Assembly: GCA_049516595.1 (NCBI GenBank)
Contig: JBEKSY010000006.1
Span: forward strand, 66,621-130,620
DNA: 64,000 nt
Source of the DNA: Anaerolineales bacterium
GTDB taxonomy: Bacteria; Chloroflexota; Anaerolineae; Anaerolineales; RBG-16-64-43
Direction: 5' to 3'
A program made the translations under genes and the position numbers. Positions 9,360-44,433 of this stretch are shown piece after piece. The first letter of the stretch is position 1; every line of letters starts with the position of its first letter. The notes under the pieces were generated by a model that saw nothing but the letters and a program-made list of their open reading frames with translations, was not told where the DNA came from and made no database searches.

Positions 9360-9375
9360 TGCAAATTGCGTGCCA
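9360..9375 (-). promoter_or_regulatory. Sigma-54 (-24/-12) promoter, perfect consensus
   Basis: The minus strand reads TGGCACGCAATTTGCA (TGGCAC-N5-TTGCA). It is intergenic, about 100 nt upstream of ATG 9258, in the correct orientation. Confidence 0.7.
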
Positions 9376-25327: not shown

Positions 25328-25774
25328 ATGAGGGAAGGGTCCAGCCGACGGAAACTGCGCCTCCAGCTCCGGCATCTGGCCGAGATGCGGCGGGCGGTCA
25401 CGGCCGCGGCACCGGAGGAGGGATGTGGGCTCGTCTTAGGGATCGGCGAGAAAGGGCTCGAGGTCGTCCCTATTGAGAATGTCATCCACAGCCCCACGCG
25501 CTTTCGGCTGGAGGGAGCGGCCCAGGTGAAGGCCATGGTTGGGGCCGCGCAAAGGGGATGGGAGCTGGTCGCGATCTTTCATTCTCACCCCAGCGGACCG
25601 ACTTATCCCTCGCCAACCGACCTGGCGGAGGCGGCCTACCCGGACGCCCTCTATTTGATCTGGGCCCCGGGGCCCACGAAACGGTGGGAATGCCGCGCCT
25701 TCGAGCTGAGGGGAATCTCACTCATGGCGGGGGCGAGCAGCTTTGTACCTGTGGAGGTTGTGAGCGAGGAATAG
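25328..25774 (+). CDS. JAMM/MPN+ (Mov34) metalloprotease-domain protein
   Basis: EGCGLVLG ... AIFHSHPSGPTYPSPTD (JAMM motif H-x-H-x7-S-x2-D). Confidence 0.85.
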   Translation: MREGSSRRKLRLQLRHLAEMRRAVTAAAPEEGCGLVLGIGEKGLEVVPIENVIHSPTRFRLEGAAQVKAMVGAAQRGWELVAIFHSHPSGPTYPSPTDLAEAAYPDALYLIWAPGPTKRWECRAFELRGISLMAGASSFVPVEVVSEE

Positions 25775-25809
25775 GAGCCCGAGGGCTGGAGGGCGCCGTC
25801 GGCCCTTGC

Positions 25810-25971
25810 CTAGAGCCAACTCGCCAGAAGGCCCAGGGCGAATCCCGCGGCCAAAGCGATCCCGGCGGGTCGCAAGTACCTTCGGGCCGAATAGAGCCCC
25901 TTCAGAACCTGCTCCACTGCCATCAACAGGTAGAGCTGGGTCTTCAACCAGGTCAATTCAAAGTTCATCAT
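25810..25971 (-). CDS. Unlisted 53-aa ORF, predicted small membrane protein
   Basis: My own translation: MMNFELTWLKTQLYLLMAVEQVLKGLYSARRYLRPAGIALAAGFALGLLASWL. It is below the track's 60-aa cutoff. TAAGGAG (stop of the upstream ORF plus SD) lies 8 nt before ATGATG. Confidence 0.45.
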   Translation of the reverse strand: MMNFELTWLKTQLYLLMAVEQVLKGLYSARRYLRPAGIALAAGFALGLLASWL

Positions 25972-25983
25972 CTCTCGGGCTCC

Positions 25984-26220
25984 TTACTTGGAAGTGCTGA
26001 TCCTCAGGATCTGACCCCGCTCATCCGCCACAACCCGCACCAAGCGAGGCAGCAGCGCTCCACTATCCGTGCGAACCTTGCCCCGGTAGGTGAGCGCATA
26101 CTGCGTCCGCCCCCCGGCGCCGGACTGGGTGCTGAGGCTGGGATGGACCCCTCGCAGTTCTGGGTATTCCCGGTATACCCGGGCACTAATTCGTTCCACA
26201 AGCTGAGAAGACATGCCCAT
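25984..26220 (-). CDS. Hypothetical 78-aa protein immediately downstream of ftsZ
   Basis: It starts 5 nt after the ftsZ stop and I recognise no family. The protein-like ending (RLVRVVADERGQILRISTSK) suggests a small beta-rich domain. Confidence 0.5.
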   Translation of the reverse strand: MGMSSQLVERISARVYREYPELRGVHPSLSTQSGAGGRTQYALTYRGKVRTDSGALLPRLVRVVADERGQILRISTSK

Positions 26221-26225
26221 GAGAA

Positions 26226-27482
26226 CTAAGCCTTTCCCGTTCGCACCAGGCGGTTACTGCTGGTAGAGGCCAGGGCCTCCTCGAGCCCTCGCCGGCGCCG
26301 GCGGATGAAGGCGGGCACGTCCAGATCTTCTTCGGCCGAAGGGGGCTGGACGCGGTGGGCTGCATGCGCCGCAGAAGCCGGGGTCGTCTCCAGCGATAGC
26401 GCGCGCTCCTCTTCGGGTTTGACCGAGGTAGCTTGCAGGAGGATGTGGGAGGCGCCAGCCAGAACACTCCCCAGCGGCTGCCCACCCACGCCCGTGACCA
26501 CGACAATAGCCTGGACGCGCCCGCTCATGCCCGGATCGATGGCGGCTCCAAACACAACCTCCGCGTCCTTGGCGCCTGCGGCCTGGATCTCCTGCATCGC
26601 CTTGTGCACTTCCATCAGCTCCAGGTCTTCCCCTCCGGTGAAGTGGACCAGGATTCCTGCGGCATGATCCAAGGAGCCAATTTCCAGCATGGGATTGCGC
26701 AGGGCAGACCGGACCGCGGACACGGCTTTGTCCGGCCCGCTGCCCTGACCCACGGCGAAGTAGGCGCCGCCTGCGAGCTGCATTAGCGCTCGCACATGGG
26801 AGAAGTCGACGTTCACGAGTCCCGGGCGAGTGATCAACTCGGTGATGGCCTGCACCCCCTGCCGGAGAACATCGTCGGCCAGCCGCAAGGCGACGTCAAA
26901 GCTGGTCTGCCGCGGGGCCACCGCAAGCAGCCGGTCATTGGGGATCGTGATCAAGGTGTCGCAGTATTCGCGCAGGCGCTCCATGCCCGCTTCCGCAATC
27001 AGGGCCCGTTTGCGTCCCTCGAAGGAAAAGGGCAGGGTGACAATGGCCACAACGATCGCACCCTGCTTGCGCGCGATCTCAGCGGCCACTGGGATGGCGC
27101 CCGTTCCTGTCCCACCGCCCAACCCACAGGTCAGGAACACCATGTCGCCCGGCCCCAGCACCTCCGCCAGCTCCCGCTCGCTCTCGCGGGCGGCCGCCTC
27201 ACCCACATCCGGCATTCCTCCTGCACCCAGGCCCCGGGTCGTATGCGGCCCTAGGGCGACCTTGACTGGCGCCAGGCAGGTGGCCAGGGCCTGTTGGTCT
27301 GTGTTGCATGCAATGAACTCGACGCCACCCAATCCGAGCTCAATCATTCGGTTGACTGCGTTGGACCCTCCGCCGCCCAGGCCAACCACCTTAAGCACCG
27401 TGACCCCGGGCGCCAAAGCCTTCTCGGGCCGGGTTGGGCTCAAGCTGAAGTCCTGGGGTTTCCCCAAGAATGCGTTCGTCAC
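26226..27482 (-). CDS. ftsZ: Cell division GTPase FtsZ
   Basis: KVVGLGGGGSNAVNRM, tubulin signature GLGGGTGTGAIPV, NTDQQAL, C-terminal peptide DLDVPAFIRRR. The GTG at 27482 (V16 of the track ORF) is preceded by GAGAGGAG and overlaps the upstream stop codon (GTGA). Confidence 0.95.
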   Translation of the reverse strand: MTNAFLGKPQDFSLSPTRPEKALAPGVTVLKVVGLGGGGSNAVNRMIELGLGGVEFIACNTDQQALATCLAPVKVALGPHTTRGLGAGGMPDVGEAAARESERELAEVLGPGDMVFLTCGLGGGTGTGAIPVAAEIARKQGAIVVAIVTLPFSFEGRKRALIAEAGMERLREYCDTLITIPNDRLLAVAPRQTSFDVALRLADDVLRQGVQAITELITRPGLVNVDFSHVRALMQLAGGAYFAVGQGSGPDKAVSAVRSALRNPMLEIGSLDHAAGILVHFTGGEDLELMEVHKAMQEIQAAGAKDAEVVFGAAIDPGMSGRVQAIVVVTGVGGQPLGSVLAGASHILLQATSVKPEEERALSLETTPASAAHAAHRVQPPSAEEDLDVPAFIRRRRRGLEEALASTSSNRLVRTGKA

Positions 27483-28744
27483 AGAGCACTCCTCTCGCCC
27501 ACCGATCTCAGCGGCTCGACAAGGCATCCGGCTGTCTGGAGACGCTCAACGAGGTCCATCGGCGGTTCGTCGCCCAGGACCGTCACCCGCTCGGCCTGCA
27601 TGGCCTCCTCAACCGAATATCCGCAAGTCGGCCGGTAAGTGCGCAGGTAGTCTTGAATGGTCTGCCAGGCTCCCTGAGCTAGCTCCTCGGCCTCAGGGGG
27701 GATCAGGAAGTAATGTTCGAAGCGCTTGCCAGCCGGATCTGGCCCCGGAGGGGTCGTCTGGCTCTGCAGCCGCTTCAGTCCATCCACCACGGGCAAGCTG
27801 GTCCCATCCGACCGGTACCAGGCCTGGTCGGCGAAGGGGCTGGCCTCTTCCGTCGCGAGCAACCAGAAGGTCACATTCTGCAGCCAAAATGGAAGCCTCC
27901 CCATGCGGGCCTGCCGGGCGATCTGAAGATTGATCTCTGAGTGGCGCTCCGGATCGGCCGGAGGAAAGTTGGGGTCGATGCGGCTGTGGAGCACGGCTCC
28001 CCCGCGAACCATCACGATCGGTCGCGGCTCGCCCAGGTGGCTCTGGACGATTTCCTCGACCCACTGGAAACCAAAGAAGCCCCGATGGTCTTCGCTTCCC
28101 GGCGGGGTAAGGTAGGGGCGAGCCTCCGGCCAGCGTTCGCACCCGCCGCGACCCCAATCCCAAGGGCGGTTGTAGGCCCAGGCGTCGACCGCGAACTCCA
28201 TGCTCGAGAGCAGCTCGGCCTTCCCGCGGCGCTCGATGGAGGTCAGGGCCGCATCGAGGAACGACAGATCCCAGTAGTCTCCTCCCGGGTAGAGCGGAGG
28301 GAACAGAGGAATCAGCCCTTCCTCCTGTTCCATTTCCGCAATCGGAAGAAAGACATCGAGGAATTGCTCGACGGGAGAGGCCTGCGACCACTGGCCCGGT
28401 CGCCAGGATTCTTGCTGGTTGGGAGCCGAGAATAGGGCCAAGTAGCGTGCTCCCCAACCCGCGTAGCTGCGGAAGAGCAGCCGCAATTCGGGGCCCAGGG
28501 GGCGAATGGGGCTTTCAGGGAGGTGCAGGATGGGTTGGATCCCGGATTCTCGGAGGGCGCAGATGAAGCTTTCAGGAATGGCTCGCGCGAGACCGGAGCG
28601 AAGGGTCAGCCACCCGAGTTCGAGAGCCTGGAACTCGGGCAGCCAGCGTGCAAGATCCTTGGTTGTGTAATGCAGGTCGTCCGGGTAGTAATGAAGCCCC
28701 AGGCGTGTTCGCTCGGCGGTAATGGCAGCGTTCATCGGCGTCAC
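27479..28744 (-). CDS. Hypothetical 421-aa protein, translationally coupled to ftsZ
   Basis: I recognise no family. Trp/Pro-rich, possibly TIM-barrel-like, with no obvious signal peptide or TM segment. The start is GTG 28744 or ATG 28735. Confidence 0.7.
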   Translation of the reverse strand: MTPMNAAITAERTRLGLHYYPDDLHYTTKDLARWLPEFQALELGWLTLRSGLARAIPESFICALRESGIQPILHLPESPIRPLGPELRLLFRSYAGWGARYLALFSAPNQQESWRPGQWSQASPVEQFLDVFLPIAEMEQEEGLIPLFPPLYPGGDYWDLSFLDAALTSIERRGKAELLSSMEFAVDAWAYNRPWDWGRGGCERWPEARPYLTPPGSEDHRGFFGFQWVEEIVQSHLGEPRPIVMVRGGAVLHSRIDPNFPPADPERHSEINLQIARQARMGRLPFWLQNVTFWLLATEEASPFADQAWYRSDGTSLPVVDGLKRLQSQTTPPGPDPAGKRFEHYFLIPPEAEELAQGAWQTIQDYLRTYRPTCGYSVEEAMQAERVTVLGDEPPMDLVERLQTAGCLVEPLRSVGERSAL

Positions 28745-28759
28745 CCCGTGGATGAACGT

Positions 28760-28775
28760 TGCAAGGCCTGTGCCA
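28760..28775 (-). promoter_or_regulatory. Sigma-54 (-24/-12) promoter, perfect consensus
   Basis: The minus strand reads TGGCACAGGCCTTGCA inside the 41-nt gap between the 940-aa gene and the 421-aa/ftsZ pair. Confidence 0.7.
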
Positions 28776-28785
28776 ACCGCCTTGG

Positions 28786-31608
28786 CTATCGGGAGACTGC
28801 CAACTTGATCAGATGGCCTGCTGCGTCAAGGCTCAGCCTTGCGAATTGAGCGTGGCCCGGGCCGTGGCCTTCGATTCGCTTGTCGAGCAAGATAACCCAA
28901 GCCGGAAGACCGCCAGCCGAGCTGGCTACCGCAGGATCCTTGGGGATGGCTGGATCTCGGCGAGGCACGATCTGGGGTTCAAACACCCGTGCCCGGCTGC
29001 CTGTCATGCCCGGCAGGCTGGCCTTGAGGACTTCCTTGAGAGAGTTCTCCAGATCGGCCGGCAGGGTTGCCAAAGAAGTGTCGTCCAGCGCCTTGACCGC
29101 GAGTAGGTCCAGGTCGGCCGGACGCGATTCGCGACGCAAGGCGCTCTTGGTGCCCGTCCCCTGAGCGAATTCCCGAGGCACAAAGAACGGATCGCCAAGG
29201 TGGATGAAAGAGATCAGCGTCTTCTGGTCTTCCCCATCGAGGTATCCTTGACGCCGTCGCATTTCCTCGGCAAAGGTCAGCTTCGCTTGCCTGAGTGCCT
29301 CGCCGGAGGGAAGGCCTCGAGTCAGGCTCTGCCAGTAGTGGAGGGCCACAAGATCTGCTCCAATGAGCGGAGGAGCGGCCGCCCCATAGGCGATCTTGGT
29401 AGAACCCACCAGGGCCCGTGTCCCTGATTCCAAGAACTTCAAGGCGAGTGCGGAATCAATCGTCTTGCTCAACACGTTCGCGCCATAACAGGCCTCGCTG
29501 AAGACTACAGTCGGGGCCCGGCCTGAGTTGGTCACCTGCGCAGGTCGCAAAGCCGTTGGAAACTCGACCGCGGACGAAGCGGATCCGGGCGAACGTTGAC
29601 CGTACCACTCTGGCGCATCCTCCAAGCCGTGCAGATTGAAGTAGGAGTACCGAGGGAAGGCCAAGTCCGCCGCCGGAAGTGTGTCGGCATCCGTGGGAGG
29701 CGAGATCAACATCGAATTGGACTGGCCAATCGGTCGGTATGCCCCCAGGGAGGCAGAGTGCCAGATGCTGGCCGTATACCCCAGACTCTTCCGAAAGCGC
29801 TTCACCCTCGGATGAAGGAGCAGCCTGATCCACCCGTACAATCGAGCCAGTGGGGTCGGCGCTTTCGCGGGAGCCTCGTCAATGATTCTCTGGATGGCCT
29901 TCAGGAGAAACTGGGGGTCATTGCCGGTTGGGTTGGGGATACGGCTCACCGGCCATTCCGGCACGTAGTAATTCTCGTCCCGGGTTGCGTAGGGATTGTC
30001 AGAAGGAACATCGTGATCGTCGTCGTCGGCGGGATTCGGAAGCCGGTGAAATGGAATGATGTCATGCCCACCGATAATGAGCAAGGCACCAATCATCTCG
30101 CCGCGCCGCGCCAGGGCGGCGTCCAGTTGACAGACCAGGCGCTTCACGTCGGCAGCATTGGAAGCCGGCACGCTCTCCAGTTGGAAGGGGCTCAGGGTTT
30201 CCGCGTCATCGGCGTAGATGGCATAGGCCGACCAGCCCTTGCGGGCGTGCTGGGAGCGAACCAGGGAGGTGAGGGATTGACAAATCGCCGCGGTCGCGCT
30301 CAGCCCATATTGGCTCTGCAGGTTCGCGAGACTCGAGAGTACGACCAAGCTGGGCCGCCTTCGGTCTTCGTCCGCCGGCTTCTTGCGCATGTGCAGCCTT
30401 CGCGCCACCCGGTCCAATTCCGCCCGAACCCGCATGAGGTCCTCGTCCTCTTGTGGTTGACCTTGTGAATCGGCTGGTTGGGTGGAGCCCGAGGGGGCCG
30501 TCCCGTGGGTTGCCTGGGGCGCGCCTGGGTTGGGGGGCAGCGCTCCTGAAGGTCCTTGGAAGTGTTCCCCGGGCAATGGACGGATTTCGACGGGCGTCTC
30601 GTCCGAGACGGGAACAGGAATCGAGGCCTCTGCCGGCGCTGGGACCGGGGGTGAGGTCAGCCCCCCGGATGGACCGCGGAAGTGCTCCCCCGGCAGCGGA
30701 CGAATTTCTGCGCCCGCCTCGTCGACCAGGAGGCTCGTGGGTGGGCCCACGGCCTCCGACCCAGGGATAGGAGACGGGTCCAGGTTGGGCGTCTCTATGA
30801 ATTCGTCCGCGCCTCGCGCCGCCGGGGTTGCCCCAGACAACTTGTTCAATCCCGCGGCGAACGCTACCGCCGTGGGAATGGACAAACGAATGTCCGCTTT
30901 GAGGTCAGCTGGCCAAAGGGCAAGATAGGGGTTGAAGGCCCCCAGCATACGTGCGCCCACCTCATGGGCGGGGTCGGCAACGGCCGCCAGGTGGAGAAGT
31001 TCCACAGCCTGGGTGGTCTTCCCGGTGGCCAGGGAGGCTTGCGCCAAGGCCAGCAAGATCGCCGGGCAGCCCGGCCAACGCTGGCGAGAGGCTCCCCCCA
31101 GGCACAGGACCGCCTCGTAATCGCCAGCCAACCATGCAACCTTCAGCTGGGCCCAGGCGGGAAGCAAAGAGTCGGGCCTTGCCCGTTCGACCTCCTCCAA
31201 CATCCGTTGCGCCTCGGCGTAATTGTGAGCATGGATCTGTGCCAATCCCTGACGCAGCAGCTCGGCCCAGGCAGGCAGGGGGAGGGGTGACGAAATCGGG
31301 TCGGTTGAAAGTGAGGAAACGAACCCCAGCGAGTCGCGCGCGGCCTCTTCCTGACCCAGGGCGCTCTGGATATCGCTGGCGGTCCGGTAGAAGGCAACCT
31401 CCTCGGGATCCGCGACCTGGGCGATCTCAATGTGCCTGGACGCGGCTCCCAGGTCGTGCAATTGCTGGTAGGCCTGGGCCAGGAAATACCGTATGCGGAA
31501 GTCGCCTGGCCATTGTCCCAGCCAGCTCCGCGAGGCATCGCGCGCGAAGGCCGAGGCGCGCACGGTGAGGGCCGCATCCGCAAGGTTAAGCAGGGTCTTT
31601 CGATCCAC
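28786..31608 (-). CDS. TPR / Pro-rich repeat / gingipain-like (peptidase C25-like, clan CD) putative cysteine peptidase
   Basis: The N-terminal ~250 aa are TPR-like helices. The C-domain has LLIIGGHDIIPF...SDNPYA...VSRIP, His-Gly (FNLHGLED, H660) and Ala-Cys (VVFSEACYG, C707) 47 residues apart, as in clan CD. No signal peptide. GTG start is 3 nt after the upstream stop, with a GAGGTGA SD. Confidence 0.8.
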   Translation of the reverse strand: MDRKTLLNLADAALTVRASAFARDASRSWLGQWPGDFRIRYFLAQAYQQLHDLGAASRHIEIAQVADPEEVAFYRTASDIQSALGQEEAARDSLGFVSSLSTDPISSPLPLPAWAELLRQGLAQIHAHNYAEAQRMLEEVERARPDSLLPAWAQLKVAWLAGDYEAVLCLGGASRQRWPGCPAILLALAQASLATGKTTQAVELLHLAAVADPAHEVGARMLGAFNPYLALWPADLKADIRLSIPTAVAFAAGLNKLSGATPAARGADEFIETPNLDPSPIPGSEAVGPPTSLLVDEAGAEIRPLPGEHFRGPSGGLTSPPVPAPAEASIPVPVSDETPVEIRPLPGEHFQGPSGALPPNPGAPQATHGTAPSGSTQPADSQGQPQEDEDLMRVRAELDRVARRLHMRKKPADEDRRRPSLVVLSSLANLQSQYGLSATAAICQSLTSLVRSQHARKGWSAYAIYADDAETLSPFQLESVPASNAADVKRLVCQLDAALARRGEMIGALLIIGGHDIIPFHRLPNPADDDDHDVPSDNPYATRDENYYVPEWPVSRIPNPTGNDPQFLLKAIQRIIDEAPAKAPTPLARLYGWIRLLLHPRVKRFRKSLGYTASIWHSASLGAYRPIGQSNSMLISPPTDADTLPAADLAFPRYSYFNLHGLEDAPEWYGQRSPGSASSAVEFPTALRPAQVTNSGRAPTVVFSEACYGANVLSKTIDSALALKFLESGTRALVGSTKIAYGAAAPPLIGADLVALHYWQSLTRGLPSGEALRQAKLTFAEEMRRRQGYLDGEDQKTLISFIHLGDPFFVPREFAQGTGTKSALRRESRPADLDLLAVKALDDTSLATLPADLENSLKEVLKASLPGMTGSRARVFEPQIVPRRDPAIPKDPAVASSAGGLPAWVILLDKRIEGHGPGHAQFARLSLDAAGHLIKLAVSR

Positions 31609-31611
31609 ACA

Positions 31612-34600: not shown

Positions 34601-36864
34601 AATGAGGCGAGTGCTTCCCTCGGCTTCCCATCCAGGAGCAGAGCCTGCCCCAACAAATTGAAATAGGAAGGATCGGCCTGGTCGTCGCATTGTTGCTGGG
34701 CTGGTTGCAGCAGATCAATTGCCTGTCTGAGGAGAGGGGTTTCTTCGTCACCCCCTTTGTGGTAAAGGGAAATCAGGGCCTTGCCCAGTCGGAGGAGAAG
34801 CGCAGTCGATGCAGGGCGAACCTTCAAGCCACTCTCCAGGGCGGCGCGCGCTTCCACCAACCGTCCCTCTGCCTCCAGCAGATCGGCCAGAGCGAGGATC
34901 AGCTCAACCTGTGCCGGTGACACCTGCAGCGCAGTTCGAAGCGCCTGCTCCGCCTCGGCCGTCCGGCCCAAATGAATAAGCGCCTCGGACAACGGCTGCA
35001 GGAGCTTGGGATCTCTCGGTGAGAGGGCCACTGCGCGTTGAAGAGCGGCCGCGGCTTCGGTGGCTAGGCCTCTCTTGAGTGCCAGTTTGCCAAGGACCAG
35101 CAGGAGTTCTCCGGGTCGGCTTGCGGATTCGACCCCGGCCCGTAGGGCAGCGGCCGCACTCTCGAGGTCGCCGCCTTTTTCATGGAGTTCGGCAAGCGCT
35201 TTCCAGGCCAGGGCGGAGGAGGGAGAAATCTGAGTTGCCTGTTGCAGGGTGGCCTGGGCTCCGTTCAGGTCGCCTTCCGCGAGAAGAGCAGCCCCCAGGA
35301 TGGCATGGGCCTCGCCCGAGTCAGGTTGGATGGCCAAGAGTCTGCGGGCGGCATCCCTGGCTTGGCCGGAATCCCCGGCTTGGAGGCTTGTCTGGGCAAG
35401 GTGCAGGACCGCCTCGGAATCGGCCGGCCGGTCCTGCACGAGGCGACGCCAGCAGTCTTGGGCCTCCAGGAAATCTCCAGCCATTTCGTGTCCCTGGGCC
35501 ACAACCTGCAGAGCCGAGGTCCTGGTGGGATCTAGGGTCCAGGCGAGGAAGGCGGTGCTTCGGGCGGAATCCCAGTTCCCCGAGCCCGCCTGGTAGTTGG
35601 CGAGGTCGAGCAAGGCCTCAGGGTCGGAGGGCTTTCTGTCCACCACGGATCGTTGGATCTCAGACGCTTCTGGGTAAGCTCCTTGGGCGGCCATCGACCG
35701 AGCAGTCTCGACGAGGAGCCCGCAGGAGACTTGCTGTCGGTCGGCTTGAGCGCCGCGGAGCGCGAACTGGCGGGCCAGGGATCCATTCCCTTGCGCGGCA
35801 TGGATCTGCGCGAGGGCCAACAAATCTCCCGGATCCTCTGGGTTGGAGGGGATCAACTGCAACGCTTCCGCGAACCGATTCAGGCGCACGAAAGCTCGTG
35901 CCATTCCAGCCCTGGCCTCGGAGGAATCGGGCAGGAGGTCCTGCAGTTCCTGAAAGGCCGCCAGAGCCGTAACCGGATCATTGTGTTGGAGGGCGTCGTT
36001 GGCCAACTCGCTCGTCCAAGTCGCCGCCCGGCGCTTCGCGCTCTCCACCAGCCGCTCAAGATTCTCCCGGGAGGCTTCCGCGGATCCCATCGCCCGTCTC
36101 ACCCGCGCCGCAAGCAGAGTTTCTAGCTCGCCGGGTTTCGCCGTCTCCGTCTGGAGAGAGGGAGAGGCTGAGTTGGTGGGCGTGGCTGGCAGGCGATTGA
36201 AAACGGTAGCGATGTTGCGCTCGAGATCCAGTTCTCCCAGATCATGGGCCGCCTCGAGCAGGGCAATGATCTGATCAGGCTGGAGAAGGGGGACCCAGGA
36301 CCCGAGAAACTGGTCCAAGGATTCTCCCTCGAGATTGGCAAGGATCGCATGGATCACGGCGGCCGGCTCTGCGGGGAGTCTGGAGGCCAGGACCGAGCAG
36401 ACCGCTTGCCCGTCGCTCAGCATGCCGAGCAGATAGATCAACACTTGCGGGGCGGCCTCCCCCATCCGGGAAAGCTGCTCCGCCGGGCTTGGGCGCGTGG
36501 CGATCGAGAGCGCAGCGAGCGCAAATTCCGAGATGCTCCCGGGCATTCCCTTGGCAAGAGCCTCTTGCGCCGCCCGAGCCCGCGTCTGCAGCTCCCCCGA
36601 GAGCGACTTGTCTGCCCTCCTGTTCTCGGGCTCCAACGCGTAACGGACTGCTTCCGTTTCCCTGGCCTTGAGCAATCCCAGAACGGCAGGTCGATAACGG
36701 CCCAGATCTTTGCCCGCCATGCGAATCGAGGATTGCAAGAACTCCTCCTCATGCAGGGCCTGCCAAAGGCCCGGCTCCTGGCGCAGCCTTCGCGCGGCGG
36801 AGGTCAAGGAAGGAGAGGGAATGGCATCGCCGAGGCGCTGAAGCAGACCGAGTTCAGTGACCAT
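31612..36864 (-). CDS. Giant TPR-repeat protein (1750 aa)
   Basis: Dozens of 34-residue Ala/Leu-rich repeats (..A...LG.AL...G....A...Y..AL.L.P..). No Walker A motif, signal peptide or TM segment seen. The N-terminal ~240 aa are non-TPR helical. Confidence 0.85.
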   Translation of the reverse strand: MVTELGLLQRLGDAIPSPSLTSAARRLRQEPGLWQALHEEEFLQSSIRMAGKDLGRYRPAVLGLLKARETEAVRYALEPENRRADKSLSGELQTRARAAQEALAKGMPGSISEFALAALSIATRPSPAEQLSRMGEAAPQVLIYLLGMLSDGQAVCSVLASRLPAEPAAVIHAILANLEGESLDQFLGSWVPLLQPDQIIALLEAAHDLGELDLERNIATVFNRLPATPTNSASPSLQTETAKPGELETLLAARVRRAMGSAEASRENLERLVESAKRRAATWTSELANDALQHNDPVTALAAFQELQDLLPDSSEARAGMARAFVRLNRFAEALQLIPSNPEDPGDLLALAQIHAAQGNGSLARQFALRGAQADRQQVSCGLLVETARSMAAQGAYPEASEIQRSVVDRKPSDPEALLDLANYQAGSGNWDSARSTAFLAWTLDPTRTSALQVVAQGHEMAGDFLEAQDCWRRLVQDRPADSEAVLHLAQTSLQAGDSGQARDAARRLLAIQPDSGEAHAILGAALLAEGDLNGAQATLQQATQISPSSALAWKALAELHEKGGDLESAAAALRAGVESASRPGELLLVLGKLALKRGLATEAAAALQRAVALSPRDPKLLQPLSEALIHLGRTAEAEQALRTALQVSPAQVELILALADLLEAEGRLVEARAALESGLKVRPASTALLLRLGKALISLYHKGGDEETPLLRQAIDLLQPAQQQCDDQADPSYFNLLGQALLLDGKPREALASFTRAIPLESLSSLPSACEAHLGAAQAFLLLKDSASAIAHARLALQIIPDNPSSLQMLARASAAAGSLEEAREAYQRLLALVPDQAEALRGLALVLRRVGQTDQAVQLLEQATELSPNQALGWADLAETLVVNNQVDMARQAMAKAIAIASGKDREIPIRAAQFLMDLKEYAEAGRILRDTLEHNPSDVRALDTFGQAMLRSGQFEESIEAFSKATDLEPANPDLLAHAAEAYWEDGRRGAAIALWKKAIGLGPKAQALTARLADALLNTGGFGEAVHYFEKAIETDPSNPQLLAAAAQAALRSGDHAKALAWVRQAIEGDPGSFEARRLEAQIALDSGAPDEALRITDQLVREAPEDSFAWALLAKSHACLGAPAPDAALQHPALLALQNALAHCGSSREGMSTTAESALLVEDYSSAIRLLEGLSQAYPDAGDYPLRLAEALTARAEAFFRWQAAHAADSPGWAEALSSATAEATRAALAQATFLGAPNEIIATLGARICLAFAHPDPREVEDLEHLVAESPSTPALISLAQAHLRTGDPSKANQWAAQAVQLDPRNATACLALALAQWKMGKPDEALRSLGLASDLASFLALPHAIGALIHAAAGNMEKAIPSLQKAVALAPHVSTWEHLLGQWLGARGEIEASIAHYQRAAEISPENPEYQISLARALRRDGDLQGAHTHYRQALFLSQAVSPQLLAEAGELALESGNPQEATENLRKALETSSPRAPVEWGLCLARALIATGHRAEARRLVEKVGADTRYQGQSLSILAEIEESEGHLDQAAVLLGQAASLLPDPFNETLHLAQLWILSGKPERAVEALLAIEPAHPNSDALSHSLAEALLKLGKGEEALRRAQTAAEAAPRRGEHWLLIGRVARKLGQIDQALDAVRRARELDPKDWRADLELGLALESQQRWDLALEAYRAAARLNPTNSEVMYRMGVVLKNLRSYSEATDALRKAVQLNPSNLPAHKLLSAVMALGLVYGLPELAPDKR

Positions 36865-36914
36865 GTCACTCCTTGGGGAGAGGATGGGAGGCGGGCCCCG
36901 AGCCTAGGCTCTGG

Positions 36915-37253
36915 CTACACGACCCAGTGGATTTGCAGCACGATGAAGTAGGCGGCACCCATCATCGCGATCCCCATCGCCATCAAGAAAACGCCTATGC
37001 CGGTTGAGGTCTTGGTCAGCTGGTTGATCACCCCAAGAATGTCGGAAACGTCCGTCACCAGCCCAGTGACATCGTGAGTGACTGCCTTGGCTCCCAGCTT
37101 GGCAGACTGTGCGGCCAGGGTGTGCATGTCCCGTGAAAACCCGCTGCTGATAAGGACCAAAATGCCGGCAGCCAGGCTGCACAGGCCCGCACCCATTGCG
37201 GTCAGGGCGATGAGGATTTGAAGATCCTGCAAGTTCATCGATCCGGAAATCAT
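36915..37253 (-). CDS. Small two-TM membrane protein (112 aa)
   Basis: MISGSMNLQDLQILIALTAMGAGLCSLAAGILVLI ... GIGVFLMAMGIAMMGAAYFIVL. ATG 37253 is preceded by CGGGAGGCCAAC. It is the first gene after the sigma-54 promoter. Confidence 0.65.
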   Translation of the reverse strand: MISGSMNLQDLQILIALTAMGAGLCSLAAGILVLISSGFSRDMHTLAAQSAKLGAKAVTHDVTGLVTDVSDILGVINQLTKTSTGIGVFLMAMGIAMMGAAYFIVLQIHWVV

Positions 37254-37295
37254 GTTGGCCTCCCGAGGTTCTCGCGGTTTTCTCGAGGGGTTGGG

Positions 37296-37311
37296 TGCAA
37301 GGGGCGTGCCA
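37296..37311 (-). promoter_or_regulatory. Sigma-54 (-24/-12) promoter, perfect consensus
   Basis: The minus strand reads TGGCACGCCCCTTGCA, 43 nt upstream of ATG 37253 and just downstream of the activator gene's terminator. Confidence 0.75.
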
Positions 37312-37335
37312 AGGAACGGAGGCGATTGGGCGGAG

Positions 37336-37363
37336 AAAAAGGGAGCTGCGCGTGGCAGCTCCC
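37336..37363 (-). terminator. Rho-independent terminator after the activator gene
   Basis: Minus strand: GGGAGCTGC-CACG-CGCAGCTCCC followed by TTTTT, about 30 nt after the stop at 37394. Confidence 0.75.
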
Positions 37364-37393
37364 GCTTTCCCATGGAATCCGAGTCCGGGGGGG

Positions 37394-38614
37394 TCAGGCC
37401 TTCGCGCGGCGGGTGGATGGCTTGACCGCTGGAGGTTCTGAGAGCAAGGCGGCGAAATCTCCCGGAAGATCCCCCACGTCGATTTCGGCGCCGTCGCAGA
37501 GCATAGCGGCTCGCTCCACCACGTAGCGCAGCTCTCGAATGTTCCCTGGCCAGGGGTGGGCGGCCAGGCCCTGAAGTGCGCGTGGAGTGGCTCCGCCCAA
37601 AGAGGCTCCTGTGCGCTCGTTGTACTTGCGCAGGAAGAGGCCGACCAGGGCTGGGATGTCTTCCTTTCGCTCTCTCAGAGGAGGCAAGTGGAGGTCGGCA
37701 ACCTTTAGGCGATAGTAGAGGTCCTCGCGGAATTCCCCCTTTTGACTAATGTGCTCCAGGTCTCGATTGGTCGCAGCAATCACCTGGACGTCCGTGTGCA
37801 GTTCGGCGATCCCGCCCACCCTGCGGAAGGCGTGATCATCCAGAAAGCGCAGGAGCTTGGCCTGAAGGTCGAGGCGCAAGCCGGAGATTTCATCCAGAAA
37901 GAGGACGCCCTCATCCGCCGCCTCCACCAATCCGGGCTTTCGTTTTTGCGCGTCGGTGAAGGCCCCCGCCTCGTGTCCAAAGAGTTCCGACTCAATCACC
38001 TCGGCAGGCAGCGCCGCACAATTGACGGGGAAAAAGGGCTTGGCGGCCCGCGGGCCCATTAGATGGATCGCCCTGGCCAAGACCTCTTTGCCTGTCCCCG
38101 TTTCGCCGGTGATTAGGACGGGAGCCGAGGTGGCGGCCGCCCGCCGCGCCTCATGCAACACGCGCTGCATGGCCGGGCTTTCGCCGGGAATCCAGTCCAG
38201 CGCCTCCGCTCTGGCCGACCTTTGGTAGTAGTCCAGCTCGCGCTGCAGGCGTACGACCTCGGCCGTCCGCTGGATCACGCTTCGCAAATGGTCCGGGTCG
38301 AGCGGCTTTTCGAGCAGGTCAACTGCTCCCAGTCGAGTAGCCTCGACTGCGGTCGCGATGCTACCGTGACCGGTGACCACCACGGTCTGTGGGCGAGGCC
38401 GCATGTTGGAGATCCTCCGCAGGAGATCGAGCCCGTGGCCGTCCGGGAGATTGAAATCGCAAATTACGATATCTGGGAGCTGCGTGTCAATCGTCCGGCT
38501 TGCGTCCCCCAGGGTCGCCGCCTCCAGGATCTCAAATCCGTCGGCCTTAAGAATCCTTGCCATCGAGCCACGCGCCTTAGCTTCGTCCTCCACAATGAGG
38601 ATACTGTACGACAT
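37394..38614 (-). CDS. Sigma-54-dependent response regulator (REC + AAA+), no DNA-binding domain
   Basis: ILIVEDE...DIVICDFNLPDGHG (REC), Walker A GETGTGKE, GAFTDA (GAFTGA variant), VLFLDEI. The protein ends about 45 aa after the AAA+ lid with no Fis-type HTH. Its ATG overlaps the kinase stop codon (TGATG). Confidence 0.9.
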   Translation of the reverse strand: MSYSILIVEDEAKARGSMARILKADGFEILEAATLGDASRTIDTQLPDIVICDFNLPDGHGLDLLRRISNMRPRPQTVVVTGHGSIATAVEATRLGAVDLLEKPLDPDHLRSVIQRTAEVVRLQRELDYYQRSARAEALDWIPGESPAMQRVLHEARRAAATSAPVLITGETGTGKEVLARAIHLMGPRAAKPFFPVNCAALPAEVIESELFGHEAGAFTDAQKRKPGLVEAADEGVLFLDEISGLRLDLQAKLLRFLDDHAFRRVGGIAELHTDVQVIAATNRDLEHISQKGEFREDLYYRLKVADLHLPPLRERKEDIPALVGLFLRKYNERTGASLGGATPRALQGLAAHPWPGNIRELRYVVERAAMLCDGAEIDVGDLPGDFAALLSEPPAVKPSTRRAKA

Positions 38615-40563
38615 CAGGTCTCCTCCGTCGCCGCGGGGATGACAACCCGGAAGACCGTTCCGCTCCCCGCATAGCTTTCGGCCATGAGCGAGCCATGATG
38701 GGCATCGAGGATGTGTCTGGAGAGAGCCAAGCCCAGCCCGTGCCCTTCTGCTCGCGTGGTGACATAGGGTTGGAACAGATGCTCTTGAACCTGGGCCGGG
38801 AGGCCCTGGCCCGTATCCGCCACCCGGACTTCGACAGCCGGCCGACCGCTGGCCAGCGTGGTTCCCTGAAGGCTGATCGCCAGATGCCCCCCCTGGGGCA
38901 TTGCTTCGGCCGCGTTGTCGACCAGGTTTAGGATGACCTGTTCGATCGAAAGCGGATCGGCCAGCGCTGGCAGGACTCCCTCCGACACGGTGAGATGGGT
39001 CTGGATCGCCGATCGGTCGAGGGAGGGCCGCACGCGCTGCAGCACCCGATTCACCAGCTCGGGCATGGCGGTTGGAACCAGATGAAAGTCCTGGCCTCGG
39101 GCGAAATCGAGCATGCGCCGGGAGATCTCGCTCAGGCGCCGGCATTCCTCCTGGGCTTCCGTGACCAACGCTTGCAGCCCTGGCTCGAGCTCGTGCAGGG
39201 CGTTCATCTCACCCAATTGCAGCGAAAGGTTGTTGAGTGGGTTGCGGACCTCGTGTGCAAAGGAGGCGGCCAACCATCCCAAGACGGCCTGCCGCTGCAA
39301 GTGTTGAACTTCGGATTGGGCGGCCTGGCTGACAGCCAAGTCGCTGATGACCACCAGCACCTGCCTCTGCCCCCCCATATCCGTCGGCGCGATCGGTATG
39401 GCGCGCAGGAAGGCTGGAAATTCCTCGCCGTTCCGCCGGTAAAGGGTTAGCTCGCTGGCTTCCTGGATCCGGTCGCTCTCGCTCGCGGCTCGCAGGGCCA
39501 TGACGGCTTCGGGAGCGGTCAGCCAATCCTCGGCTTTCATTTCAGCCAATTCCTTGGAAAGGTAGCCGAACATCGCCTCGGCGCCAGGGTTAGCGCGCAC
39601 CACGCGGCTGCCTTTCTCGGCGACTAGGAGAACCGCCTGGGCGGTAGCCTCCATCAGGCTCTCGGCGATGGCGCGGAATTGCGAGAGCTGCGCTACGGCC
39701 TCCTTGAGCCCCTTCTCCAGACTTCGACCGCGCAGCTCGGCCAACAAGGCAATGGAGAGCAGAGCACTCAATGCCGCAGGGTCGGGCAGGGGATTTCTTT
39801 CTTTCCACCCAAGCAGCAGAAGGGCCCGTAAAGCCGCAGAGCGATCCAGATCGTGCACCACAATCTGTCGGGTTCCGGCGGAAAGGGCCCAGGCAGCCAG
39901 GGGAGTCTCCACCGGGTCGCCCAGGCGCCAGACGTACGATGCGCTTGACAGTTCTTTGAGCGTCAGCCCCGGGTTGGCGGGAAGCCCGGGGGGCAGCCCC
40001 GCCTCGGCGGCTAGGGCCGGGGGCCCGCCATCTCCTTCGGAGAGCAGCACGGCCGAGTAGTCCGCCTGGAGGAGCTGCGCGCCCCACGCCACCAACTCTT
40101 GGAGCGATCCCTCCTCCTTGATTCCTTGCACGAACGAGTGCAAGAACTGGATGCCTTCGTGGAGGCGCGGGTAGGTGGAGGACTCCGCCTCCGGCTGCTG
40201 GCGCAGGCTCACCAGGGCATCGGGCTCATCCTCGCCAGGAAGACGAATGGCTTGGATTTCCCAGAGATGAGGGAGGTCCTCAGACGGCAGGCTGAGCCGT
40301 TGCGTCCAGCGCACTGGCCGGCCCCGCGCCAGGCTGGAGAGCATGGGGCCGATCTCCGGAACCCCCAGCAATTCTGCCAGGGAGCGGCCGATCAGCTCCT
40401 CTCGACGGGTGCCCAGCCTGCGCCCAGCCAGCGGGTTGGCGTCCAGCACCGCCCCGCTCGAAGCGGCGACGGCGAAGAGGGCCTCGTGATGCATCTCTCC
40501 TAGTCCCAGGGCTTGGGACGAGAGACGATCTCGGGATTTTGAAGTGGGACGCAGCGCCCACAT
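38614..40563 (-). CDS. Cytoplasmic PAS/GAF sensor histidine kinase
   Basis: H-box FAHEVRNPLN, N-box NLVDNAAEAM, G1 DTGQGLP, G2 GHGLGLALS. Upstream are PAS- and GAF-like regions, with no TM segment. Confidence 0.9.
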   Translation of the reverse strand: MWALRPTSKSRDRLSSQALGLGEMHHEALFAVAASSGAVLDANPLAGRRLGTRREELIGRSLAELLGVPEIGPMLSSLARGRPVRWTQRLSLPSEDLPHLWEIQAIRLPGEDEPDALVSLRQQPEAESSTYPRLHEGIQFLHSFVQGIKEEGSLQELVAWGAQLLQADYSAVLLSEGDGGPPALAAEAGLPPGLPANPGLTLKELSSASYVWRLGDPVETPLAAWALSAGTRQIVVHDLDRSAALRALLLLGWKERNPLPDPAALSALLSIALLAELRGRSLEKGLKEAVAQLSQFRAIAESLMEATAQAVLLVAEKGSRVVRANPGAEAMFGYLSKELAEMKAEDWLTAPEAVMALRAASESDRIQEASELTLYRRNGEEFPAFLRAIPIAPTDMGGQRQVLVVISDLAVSQAAQSEVQHLQRQAVLGWLAASFAHEVRNPLNNLSLQLGEMNALHELEPGLQALVTEAQEECRRLSEISRRMLDFARGQDFHLVPTAMPELVNRVLQRVRPSLDRSAIQTHLTVSEGVLPALADPLSIEQVILNLVDNAAEAMPQGGHLAISLQGTTLASGRPAVEVRVADTGQGLPAQVQEHLFQPYVTTRAEGHGLGLALSRHILDAHHGSLMAESYAGSGTVFRVVIPAATEET

Positions 40564-40584
40564 CCGCTGATAACCTACTTTCGT

Positions 40585-41997
40585 CTAGGGGCTTGACACA
40601 ACAGCTTGGCGTTGCGACCGCTGTGCCTTCCTGAGTGCAGCCGGCAGAATCCCTTCCATTGCGCGGTATTTGGCAATCGTTCTGCGCGCCACCGGAATAC
40701 CCCGTTCTCGCAGCATCCCGGCGACCTTGGTGTCCGTGAGGGGCTCGGTCTCCCCGGCAATAATGGAGCGGACCTCATCGCGAACTGAGAGACTCCGATC
40801 GAAGAATCTTGAAAGGGGAATGATGCGGCCATTGGGAAGCGTAGCCCTCTTGCGGCTGACTGCGCGCGAAATCGTCGACTCATGAACCCCCAGGCGCTTG
40901 GCCACGAGGGCGCGGGTCAACGGCTTGAGATCCCGGTCCGTGCCCAGGATGAACTCCCGCTGCTCCTCAGCCAAGGCTCGGGCCAGCCTCAGGAGGGTGT
41001 TCTGGCTTTGCCTGAGACATTTCTCAACGAGGGCCGCCTCCTCGACCTTGGCCTCCCAGTTGTCCCGCTCATCGCCTGCCAAGCTGCGCAGGGCCTCACG
41101 AAATTCCGAGCTCACGTGCAGGCGCGCCGCCAGGGGGGCGAACACCTCAACGATCAGCGGGCCGTTAGCCTGATGGGGGGACAGGCGAAAGGTCATTTCG
41201 GCATCGGTGTAGCGGTCTGGTTCGGGTGCCGCTCGGGCGTGGTCGGATCCGAGAAAGGCCCGGCCGGGATAGGGCGTTAGATTGAGGTGAATGAATCTGG
41301 CTGCCTGCTCGACCAGGGCGCGCGAGATCCCAAGCTGGCGCGCAATCGTTCCGTATTCTCCTCGGGCGAGCTCCTCCAGGTGGTCTCGGATGATGGGGCC
41401 GACGCATTCGGGAACGGGCTTCGTCTCGCTGAGTTGATCGACCTGAATGAGCAGTGCCTCCACAGGCGAGGGGGCGCCAATGCCAGGGGGGTCACCTCGC
41501 TGGATCATGTGGAGTGTCCGCTCGATCAACGCCAGCGGCTTGTGCAGGTACTGGGCAGCCTCAGCCGGGCTCTCGGATAGAAGGCCATTTTCGTCGAGGC
41601 GAGCTAGAAGATAGACCGCAACGGGACGCTGCTCGTCGTCGAGTTCGGGGCCAATCTGCTTCATCAGTCGCTCGCGCAGCCCTTCTGGCTGGGCTGGTTC
41701 GGGGAGATCCTCCAGGCTCTGGCTGGAAGCCGAATGGACCGGAGGGGGGGAAAGGAAAACGATGGGCTGATCGCTGGGGGCGTGGCAGACCGGGCAGGGG
41801 CCGGGCAGGTAAAGGGGGCGGTGGCAGGTCGGACAGCGGGCTGGCTTGACGAGCTCCAGAGCTGGATTGGAGGCGAGCACGGAATTCAACCACTGGTTGA
41901 GCTCGGCTCGCGAGAGGCTCAGCAGGTTCATCGTCTGGGCCAGGTGGGCCGTTGCAGTCTGGCGCAGGCGAGGCAGATTACGTTGCGCAGTGTACAT
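40585..41997 (-). CDS. rpoN: RNA polymerase sigma-54 factor
   Basis: Region I (LRQTATAHLAQTMNLLSLSRAEL), HTH and RpoN box (ARRTIAKYRAMEGILPA). ATG 41997 is preceded by CTGGAGGAGACGCA. The track ORF start at 42159 is an extension. Confidence 0.92.
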   Translation of the reverse strand: MYTAQRNLPRLRQTATAHLAQTMNLLSLSRAELNQWLNSVLASNPALELVKPARCPTCHRPLYLPGPCPVCHAPSDQPIVFLSPPPVHSASSQSLEDLPEPAQPEGLRERLMKQIGPELDDEQRPVAVYLLARLDENGLLSESPAEAAQYLHKPLALIERTLHMIQRGDPPGIGAPSPVEALLIQVDQLSETKPVPECVGPIIRDHLEELARGEYGTIARQLGISRALVEQAARFIHLNLTPYPGRAFLGSDHARAAPEPDRYTDAEMTFRLSPHQANGPLIVEVFAPLAARLHVSSEFREALRSLAGDERDNWEAKVEEAALVEKCLRQSQNTLLRLARALAEEQREFILGTDRDLKPLTRALVAKRLGVHESTISRAVSRKRATLPNGRIIPLSRFFDRSLSVRDEVRSIIAGETEPLTDTKVAGMLRERGIPVARRTIAKYRAMEGILPAALRKAQRSQRQAVVSSP

Positions 41998-42219
41998 TGC
42001 GTCTCCTCCAGGGGGCCGCAATCCGCGCCTCGGCGTTGATGCTTTCTGGAATGCGCCCGAATTGGCGCCCGAGGGGCCGGAGTATAGGTCAAAACCCTTA
42101 AGGTGACAAGTTGCAAGTAGCATGCCTACGGGCACGCCGCTTGCACACGGCTCTGCCAAGGGGTTTGGAGGCTTGAGATTGGCTGTTCTTGTGCTTGGGG
42201 CGGTCTGGGCGGCCGGTAT

Positions 42220-44202: not shown

Positions 44203-44359
44203 GATTCCTCCGTAGGACGGGCCGAGGCCATTCCATGACAGTCCCTCCGCAACGGTTGCCGGGCGCCGCCCGAAAGTGTCCTTCCCATCCCCGGGCCGCT
44301 GCCCACAGGGGTTCCGAGGAGAGCCAGACTCAGTAAGATGGAGTGCAGCATTTCGGTGC

Positions 44360-44388
44360 ATTATACTTACTTGAAAGGGTCCGAACAA
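44360..44388 (-). promoter_or_regulatory. Candidate sigma-70 type promoter for the mtaD-CYTH gene
   Basis: Minus strand: TTGTTC-N17-TATAAT in the divergent intergenic region. Confidence 0.4.
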
Positions 44389-44433
44389 CAAGCCAGGAAC
44401 GTCGCCGCCCCAAGCGAAGCCAGGGGGTGATCG

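Follow-up and report, generated by a model that had tools for sequence, protein, structure and literature searches.

A probable Anaerolineae sigma-54 regulon in which the regulator genes are clustered with ftsZ and other predicted targets

We analysed 64,000 nucleotides (nt) of DNA from an Anaerolineales bacterium of the phylum Chloroflexota (contig JBEKSY010000006.1, positions 66,621 to 130,620), a stretch that we refer to as the window. It carries genes for sigma-54 (rpoN), a sensor histidine kinase and an activator of sigma-54, followed on the same strand by a group of genes that includes the cell-division gene ftsZ (Table 1). Transcription by sigma-54 holoenzyme is all-or-none and strictly activator-dependent. 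Our results make it likely that the cluster belongs to a small sigma-54 regulon that is spread across the Anaerolineae lineage, has its regulators and main targets side by side, and gates ftsZ and its associated genes. The Anaerolineae are filamentous bacteria that are abundant in peat, sludge, sediments and digesters and are hard to culture.

Sigma-54 boxes in the window

A motif scan of the 64-kb window for TGGCAC-N5-TTGCW recovered three exact matches, all of them on the minus strand, intergenic and correctly oriented, as an earlier note on this DNA had proposed. In 100 dinucleotide-preserving shuffles the same motif occurred 0.02 ± 0.14 times and no shuffle (0/100) reached three matches, a figure close to the chance expectation of about 0.03 given in that note. 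The GG and GC dinucleotides of the window TGGCAC-N5-TTGCA boxes are exactly 10 nt apart, and each of the three boxes precedes a Shine-Dalgarno-like sequence and the start codon of a co-oriented gene. Downstream of the box at 37296-37311 we read GGGAGG and then the ATG at 37253 of a gene for a small protein with two transmembrane segments (2-TM); this box and gene are as described earlier, the distance between box and ATG being 42 nt instead of 43 nt. The box at 28760-28775 is followed by GGGGTGA and the ATG at 28735 of a gene for a conserved protein of 418 amino acids (aa) that directly precedes ftsZ. On the strength of their sequence we treat all three boxes as predicted sigma-54 promoters that are probably active.

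Conservation and selectivity of the boxes in related genomes

With each species represented by a single genome, the family of the 418-aa protein was found in 434 species genomes. We retrieved the 80 best loci from these genomes, one of them from a 97%-identical Anaerolineales genome of the SPRUCE peat experiment, and mapped ten window proteins onto the related loci by tblastn. The named genomes with the cassette are all metagenome-assembled, with no cultured, named Anaerolineae among the matches. The 418-aa gene adjoins ftsZ in 77 of the 77 non-redundant Anaerolineae loci where the contig allows it to be seen, and the genes for sigma-54, kinase and activator stand side by side in every locus with rpoN (23/23). 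Three layouts were found. In the first, that of the window, the regulators are followed by the 2-TM gene, a gene for a tetratricopeptide repeat (TPR) protein, a peptidase-like gene, the 418-aa gene, ftsZ and the small genes. In the second, a gap of ~1.7 kb separates the regulators from the 418-aa gene, ftsZ and a small gene, and the 2-TM, TPR and peptidase genes come last. The third comprises loci with the ftsZ unit alone inside 21 kb. In 39 loci the flanks extend for 9 kb or more in either direction; of these, the 2-TM/TPR/peptidase genes occur in 31, the activator in 24 and rpoN in 18, and 8 lack all of them. That the linkage between the cassette and ftsZ survives rearrangement into two gene orders argues for a functional tie.

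We then scanned both strands of 81 non-redundant loci plus the window, which amounts to 1.4 Mb of related loci rather than complete genomes, for boxes that keep GG and GC and otherwise depart little from TGGCAC-N5-TTGCA. Exact boxes were found 76 times, against 0.6 expected from Markov shuffles (>100-fold enriched), boxes with one mismatch 110 times against 21, and boxes with two mismatches 216 times against 225. Since the last class occurs at chance frequency it was dropped as general evidence; only boxes with at most one mismatch are informative alone, and any other box needs an orthologous position. The strong boxes are selective and not scattered: of the 186 that have no more than one mismatch, 162 sit immediately before homologues of cluster genes, namely the 418-aa gene (65), ftsZ (39), the 2-TM gene (20), rpoN (18), the peptidase gene (14), a 78-aa gene downstream of ftsZ (3), the TPR gene (2) and the kinase gene (1). 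Most of the other 24 are at the same spots and had been assigned to spurious open reading frames.

Counted per gene, with at most one mismatch and between -260 and +40 of the start, boxes are present at 18/23 rpoN genes, 51/82 418-aa genes, 39/77 ftsZ genes, 20/43 2-TM genes (including those of all close relatives) and 12/46 peptidase genes. None is found at the kinase (0/23), activator (0/30) or TPR (0/47) genes, and the kinase and TPR gene starts serve as internal negative controls. The stretch from -260 of the 418-aa gene to the start of ftsZ holds at least one such box in 69 of 77 loci, against a chance expectation of about one locus. In many relatives the 418-aa gene and ftsZ each have a sigma-54 box in front, and loci with no cassette within 10 kb keep exact boxes before both genes.

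The -24/-12 boxes are kept in orthologous intergenic regions across species-level relatives. Profiled position by position, 155 distinct promoters are conserved only in TGGCAc and TTGCA and not in the flanks, except in those cases where the ftsZ box falls within the last part of the coding region before it. The match of two-mismatch boxes to background is what one would expect if the boxes were chance matches, or sites of another DNA-binding protein for which sigma-54 is irrelevant. We regard such an origin as extremely improbable: exact matches exceed expectation more than 100-fold, the GG/GC spacing, the strand and the position relative to the start codon are constant across proteins that are 38-97% identical while neighbouring intergenic bases vary, and the boxes are genetically linked to rpoN.

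The regulator cassette

The three regulator genes are packed as the earlier note had described them, and their domains bear out its assignments: the kinase gene starts 21 nt past rpoN, and the activator gene overlaps the kinase stop codon by 1 nt. The sigma-54 protein scores 29.0 against PF00309 (cut-off 23.8), 105.4 against PF04963 and 98.6 against PF04552, each score exceeding the threshold of its model, and it misses the equivalog cut-off of TIGR02395 (229.9 versus 277.35 bits), as a member of a divergent branch. Several NCBI records label the rpoN orthologue 'hypothetical protein'. Given these labels and the score below the TIGR02395 cut-off, sigma-54 is probably under-counted in Anaerolineae annotations. 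Right after region I (residues 55-71; window 41785-41835, minus strand) the protein has a zinc-ribbon-like CxxC-N11-CxxC insertion, CPTCHRPLYLPGPCPVC, the motif of which is kept in 18 of 19 sigma-54 orthologues. We know of no such feature in characterised sigma-54 proteins.

A scan of the kinase for hydrophobic segments found none, and the kinase is therefore taken to be cytoplasmic. The activator matches PF00072 Response_reg (89 bits), PF00158 Sigma54_activat (221 bits) and AAA_lid_14, and the Walker A motif GETGTGKE and the GAFTDA loop are read in its sequence. Its receiver (REC) domain has an acidic pocket at E9-D10, and D53, within VICDFNLPD, is the probable phospho-acceptor. No helix-turn-helix family was matched in a Pfam search; the protein stops 17 residues past the AAA lid and covers only positions 1-383 of the 463 of the NtrC model, and its orthologues are mostly 387-400 aa long. 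Judged by these features, the activator belongs to the subtype without a DNA-binding domain (DBD; type Ic of PMC3162934), lacking the HTH_8/Fis-type C-terminus. Without such a domain it would act from solution on every sigma-54 closed complex, with no need of enhancers, as its likeness to Helicobacter FlgR and Chlamydia CtcC suggests. The kinase and the activator presumably form a pair. The hairpin and T5 terminator reported earlier behind the activator gene was found again, as a 9-pair stem followed by TTTTT.

A predicted composite promoter of rpoN

Upstream of rpoN lies a sigma-54-like box, AGGCATGCTACTTGCA, with two mismatches. The orthologous position holds AGGCACACTACTTGCA in the 97% relative and CGGCACGTTACTTGCA in a 91% relative, and more distant rpoN loci have TGGCAY-N5-TTGCA there. 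When the genome loci were pooled with 13 more loci from a metagenome scan (33 distinct sequences), a sigma-54 box was found upstream of rpoN in all but one locus.

The box at rpoN is accompanied by a sigma-70-type promoter. We scanned a 17-kb region for sites that agree with the E. coli consensus at 9 or more of 12 positions, a threshold that weaker or internal promoters would escape, and the site at 42081-42109 (10/12 positions) was the sole match within 25500-42400, with none before the targets. TATACT or TATAAT is kept in the orthologous rpoN upstream regions. In 16 of the 33 distinct sequences the TTGCAn of the -12 box sits 16-17 nt before TATAcT and doubles as the -35 hexamer, and in 7 others it is the TTGGCA of the -24 box that lies 16 nt before TATAAT. 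In the window the two elements abut and share no hexamer.

The fusion of the sigma-54 box to a sigma-70 promoter suggests autoregulation, since two holoenzymes must compete for such a composite promoter. The sequence is compatible with feedback of either sign: the sigma-70 promoter would be covered by a closed sigma-54 complex, while an activated complex would contribute transcription. It is well possible, if somewhat short of an even chance, that the box serves as an operator at which the closed complex blocks the overlapping sigma-70 promoter, which would amount to negative autoregulation instead of positive feedback. The shared hexamers in the 16 and the 7 upstream regions fit an operator, as do reports of negative rpoN autoregulation in rhizobia. 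Then again, the same box could fire once the activator is active, so that both modes may operate according to activator state, and in the window the abutting elements do not share a hexamer.

A near-consensus sigma-54 box, GGGCACGCCGCTTGCA, lies at 42130-42145 on the plus strand, back-to-back with the rpoN box. Together the two form a TGCAAG-N22-CTTGCA inverted arrangement, which is kept in the 97% and 91% relatives (L086 and L090). No plus-strand gene follows GGGCACGCCGCTTGCA, and transcription from it would be antisense to the amidohydrolase gene at 42220-44391.

ftsZ, its 418-aa neighbour and the small downstream genes

In the ftsZ product we read the GGGTGTG motif and the C-terminal peptide DLDVPAFIRRRRR. 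The most likely start of ftsZ is the GTG at 27482, which overlaps the stop codon of the upstream gene as GTGA; this overlap also marks the start of an 80% orthologue, and translational coupling of the two genes is thus probable. Across the family the spacing between the 418-aa gene and ftsZ is usually ~200 nt or less, with the 4-nt overlap in the window and its closest relatives.

That an unknown gene and ftsZ follow the box at 28760-28775 had been proposed earlier and holds, the unknown product having then been given as 421 aa. An exact look-up of the 421-aa product was empty, and the ATG 9 nt downstream is the likelier start because close orthologues are 418 aa long. The 418-aa protein has 751 homologues, nearly all from Anaerolineales or Chloroflexota metagenome-assembled genomes, and no Pfam match. 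In its AlphaFold model (predicted local distance difference test score, pLDDT, 86), eight strand-helix units form a (beta/alpha)8 barrel, for which the best Foldseek match was PslG (E 6.5e-9, template modelling score 0.49), with members of GH1, GH2 and GH10 also matched; the likeness to clan GH-A glycosidases is a loose one. Comparison of the family profile with PDB sequences gave nothing useful. The catalytic glutamates of clan GH-A were not found among 18 sequences of the family, in which E55 is the sole invariant Glu; neither after strand 4 (PN106-x) nor after strand 7 (G246) is there a conserved Glu. In the absence of this conserved catalytic pair we did not file the protein as a glycosidase. 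A divergent FtsA, which usually occupies this gene position, was also rejected, given the TIM-barrel fold and no FtsA or actin-like Pfam match. We consider the 418-aa protein a candidate lineage-specific FtsZ-associated protein. A second, more divergent copy of its gene lies downstream of ftsZ in two loci (L044 16056-17144; L057 14306-15361), and in L044 an opposite-strand activator and a second rpoN-like match are near this copy.

The 78-aa protein has no Pfam match. In a few species an exact or one-mismatch box precedes its gene (L004 12510-12525; L014 about 5080; L040 about 12831), which can therefore have its own promoter. Orthologues of the 53-aa protein were detected by tblastn only in closer relatives.

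With no sigma-70-type site before the targets, and with the ftsZ unit placed 50 nt behind the peptidase gene, ftsZ transcription in the window appears to come from two sigma-54 promoters. Alternatively, the sigma-54 promoters might be real and auxiliary, with constitutive sigma-70 promoters serving ftsZ and its partners and the cassette boosting or retiming their expression under a particular condition. There are parallels in the sigma-H-dependent ftsAZ promoter used at the onset of sporulation in Bacillus subtilis and in the developmental ftsZ promoter of Streptomyces. By the textbook account ftsZ is as a rule essential and mostly has several promoters, which makes such a role plausible; our sigma-70 scan would overlook weaker or internal sites, and the two sigma-54 boxes of many relatives tell us that multi-promoter control exists. 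Nevertheless, no conserved -10-like element accompanies the target boxes, though one is obvious at rpoN, and in the window there is a gap of only 50 nt ahead of the 418-aa gene and an overlap of the ftsZ start with the stop codon before it. We therefore hold an auxiliary role to be unlikely and prefer to read the boxes as the promoters that gate ftsZ.

The 2-TM, TPR and peptidase genes

The gene order behind the box at 37296-37311, a 2-TM gene, a 1750-aa TPR gene and a 940-aa gene combining TPR with a clan-CD peptidase-like domain, was correctly given in the earlier note, as judged by domains and coordinates. The 2-TM gene has orthologues in 43 loci, and its product has no Pfam or PADLOC match. 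It is, with the tail-anchored 53-aa protein, the exception among the cluster proteins and the third target (see below), which otherwise have neither signal peptide nor transmembrane segment. TPR gene orthologues encode 1724-1877 aa and are syntenic.

Peptidase_C25 (PF01364) was matched by 8 of 12 orthologues of the 940-aa protein, with a best E of 3.6e-15 and with weak or faint precomputed matches; the window protein itself gave no PF01364 match at E <= 0.1. A profile of the peptidase domain found no relative among PDB sequences. His660 (in FNLHG) and Cys707 (in EACYG) do not vary among the family sequences compared (30/30) and, by analogy, would form the catalytic His-Gly...Ala-Cys dyad of the peptidase. 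The linker between the TPR and peptidase domains is the least conserved stretch of the protein; in the window protein it contains two copies of EIRPLPGEHF(R/Q)GPSG (residues 301-355, window about 30544-30708, minus strand).

Instead of a division module, the 2-TM/TPR/C25-like peptidase operon might be a system for conflict or cell death in a multicellular filament that only shares its regulator with ftsZ. TPR scaffolds and caspase-like peptidases are typical of such systems in multicellular bacteria, including Chloroflexi (PMC7159879), and the invariant His/Cys dyad suggests that the enzyme is active. Against this, PADLOC gave only generic TPR matches and no defence-family match, for which reason we also rejected the cluster as an anti-phage defence system. 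Pfam revealed no NTPase sensor domain, and the genes are single-copy, syntenic and found in 31 of the 39 fully flanked loci, which is core-like and not the pattern of variable islands. We thus think a conflict system distinctly improbable.

The predicted third target and the rest of the window

The gene behind the third box encodes a 367-aa protein with 1574 homologues. In Foldseek, its model (pLDDT 90.7) matched SnoaL 7e85_A (E 8e-10) and chitinase-like barrels (template modelling score about 0.5). No match was found by tblastn of this protein against the related ftsZ-cluster loci, and orthologous loci were looked up separately. The third box recurs with one mismatch, and equally far from the gene (-97 to -107), in three of five orthologous loci, which have 59-69% protein identity and all adjoin relA, and it is absent from the two more distant ones, which have a different gene context. 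Both the 418-aa protein and the 367-aa target model as glycoside-hydrolase-like barrels; we rejected them as paralogues, with an hhalign probability of 0.3% and no detectable relation.

The remaining genes of the window are ordinary core genes, including clpP, tig, gyrA, relA, moeA, tilS and valS, and the window is therefore chromosomal and not a mobile island. An extracytoplasmic function (ECF)-type sigma factor gene (52236-52859, plus strand) and a gene for a GAF-HD (HD_5) protein (58687-60282, minus strand) show no link to the cluster.

Table 1. Genes and predicted regulatory elements of the sigma-54 cluster and its third target, in window coordinates
Feature	Length	Position	Strand	Description
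Sigma-54-like box upstream of rpoN		42112..42127	(-)	AGGCATGCTACTTGCA; 2 mismatches, GG and GC kept
Sigma-70-type promoter of the rpoN operon		42081..42109	(-)	TTGTCA-N17-TATACT; directly abuts the sigma-54 box
rpoN (sigma-54)	470 aa	40585..41997	(-)	Pfam AID, CBD and DBD; RpoN box ARRTIAKYR
Soluble sensor histidine kinase	649 aa	38614..40563	(-)	N-terminal sensor region, PAS, HisKA, HATPase_c
REC-AAA+ sigma-54 activator	406 aa	37394..38614	(-)	Response_reg, Sigma54_activat, AAA_lid_14; GAFTDA loop
Intrinsic terminator after the regulator operon		37336..37363	(-)	9-pair stem (7 G-C), 5-nt loop, TTTTT
Predicted sigma-54 promoter, 2-TM/TPR/peptidase operon		37296..37311	(-)	TGGCACGCCCCTTGCA; exact match
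Small membrane protein (2-TM)	112 aa	36915..37253	(-)	Transmembrane segments 11-40 and 83-112
TPR protein	1750 aa	31612..36864	(-)	Many TPR families, e.g. TPR_19 (329 bits)
940-aa protein	940 aa	28786..31608	(-)	N-terminal TPR (TPR_19), low-complexity linker, C-terminal C25-like (clan CD) cysteine peptidase domain
Predicted sigma-54 promoter, unknown-gene/ftsZ operon		28760..28775	(-)	TGGCACAGGCCTTGCA; exact match, within a 50-nt gap
Conserved protein ('DUF')	418 aa	27479..28735	(-)	Start ATG 28735; TIM barrel and small alpha/beta domain
ftsZ	418 aa	26226..27482	(-)	TIGR00065 370.2 bits (cut-off 295.2); PF00091 Tubulin, PF12327 FtsZ_C
Conserved 78-aa protein	78 aa	25984..26220	(-)	Downstream of ftsZ; orthologues after ftsZ in 56 loci
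Conserved 53-aa protein	53 aa	25810..25971	(-)	C-terminal transmembrane segment; last gene of the operon
Predicted third sigma-54 promoter		9360..9375	(-)	TGGCACGCAATTTGCA; exact match
Third-promoter target	367 aa	8155..9258	(-)	Glycoside-hydrolase-like TIM barrel and NTF2/SnoaL domain (SnoaL_2)

Discussion

We propose the following model for the cluster. The sigma-70-type promoter would transcribe the rpoN-kinase-activator operon and supply basal amounts of sigma-54, kinase and activator, and through the sigma-54 box fused to that promoter sigma-54 holoenzyme would feed back on its own synthesis. The soluble PAS-type kinase would sense a cytoplasmic cue and phosphorylate the REC domain of the activator at D53. 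Working without enhancers, the activator would then act from solution on all sigma-54 closed complexes in the cell, so that three units would be co-activated: the 2-TM/TPR/C25-like peptidase operon, the 418-aa gene with ftsZ and the two small genes, and, at a distance of 16 kb, the third gene. The target operon would be insulated from regulator read-through by the terminator that follows the activator gene. In sum, one two-component signal would gate the synthesis of FtsZ and of the proteins co-transcribed with it, and in this way the septation of the filament. Cell division would accordingly be the output of the regulon; the earlier note had, by conjecture, named division control, differentiation or a stress programme.

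Several points weigh against this model. A consensus box alone is not proof of a promoter, and the window rpoN box, with its two mismatches, is by itself at background level. A strong box of its own is found at only 20 of the 43 2-TM genes and at only 12 of the 46 peptidase genes. It would be unusual for an essential division gene to rely entirely on a sigma factor that needs an activator, and constitutive ftsZ promoters may lie inside the upstream genes, the sigma-70 scan having been a stringent one based on the E. coli consensus. In addition, the rpoN, activator and ftsZ genes were seen at these loci, and further copies may lie elsewhere in the genomes.

One may go further and suppose that sigma-54 has been captured in the Anaerolineae as a dedicated cell-division sigma factor, self-regulating, served by a single kinase and a single DBD-less activator, and with ftsZ as its main output. 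We offer this extension tentatively, and would sooner doubt it than adopt it. If it were true, septation of the filament would be licensed transcriptionally by an ATP-dependent sigma-54 switch and not by sigma-70 promoters, and the partners in division would be a catalytically altered TIM-barrel protein whose translation is coupled to that of FtsZ, a caspase-like peptidase, a giant TPR scaffold and the two small proteins.

If the broader proposal of a clustered regulon is right, ftsZ under a sigma-54 switch would be an unusual form of division control that two surveys of sigma-54 regulons do not mention (PMC3162934, PMC12316311). The cluster nominates candidates for Chloroflexota division, namely the 418-aa, 78-aa, 53-aa, 2-TM, TPR and C25-like peptidase proteins, and it would constitute a compact circuit of four promoters, one kinase and one activator. 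The sigma-54 of the Anaerolineae is moreover divergent enough to be annotated as 'hypothetical', and surveys would undercount it. A comparative study of 2011 found sigma-54 'only in some Chloroflexi' and no enrichment of cell-cycle genes near sigma-54, activators or promoters (COG category D, '- - -'; PMC3162934), while a cross-phylum survey of sigma-54 regulons from 2025 does not cover Chloroflexi or list ftsZ as a target (PMC12316311). Literature searches that paired sigma-54 or rpoN with ftsZ, Anaerolineae or Chloroflexi uncovered no account of such wiring and no paper on the control of division genes in Anaerolineae.

Among known systems, the closest analogy is with FlgS-FlgR-sigma-54 of Helicobacter pylori, which likewise combines a soluble cytoplasmic kinase with a REC-AAA+ activator that has no C-terminal DNA-binding domain. 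FlgR is a type Ic activator, a DBD-less minority subtype that includes Helicobacter FlgR and Chlamydia CtcC (PMC3162934). Its activation is enhancer-independent and reaches all sigma-54 promoters, which by analogy may hold for the Anaerolineae cassette too. The two systems differ in their targets, flagellar class 2 genes for FlgS-FlgR and ftsZ, TPR, peptidase and TIM-barrel genes in the Anaerolineae, and in their host phylum, the Chloroflexota in question being non-flagellated filaments. Furthermore, the Anaerolineae rpoN shares an operon with the kinase and activator genes and has a sigma-54 box of its own.

CtcB-CtcC-sigma-54 of Chlamydia trachomatis is similar in that a two-component pair contains an activator without a DNA-binding domain. 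The sigma-54 regulon under its control is small and linked with a developmental or cell-cycle transition (PMC7482065, PMC3162934). Unlike in the Anaerolineae cluster, late membrane and type III secretion genes are the targets. To our knowledge, Chlamydia has no ftsZ and its rpoN is not clustered with ctcBC, and we are aware of no composite sigma-54/sigma-70 promoter at Chlamydia rpoN.

As regards autoregulation, a sigma-54 box overlaps the rpoN promoter in negatively autoregulated proteobacterial rpoN genes. In the Anaerolineae, by comparison, the overlap is with a clear TTGnnn-N16/17-TATAcT promoter and the operon also encodes the activator, so that positive feedback is equally possible.

Finally, control of division through the level of ftsZ transcription is known from the sigma-H-dependent ftsAZ P2 promoter of B. 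subtilis, from ftsZ2p of Streptomyces and from CtrA/DnaA in Caulobacter. Unlike the regulon proposed here, none of these is known to use sigma-54 or an AAA+ activator. The parts of the cassette are all of known kinds; its wiring and its ftsZ target are new.

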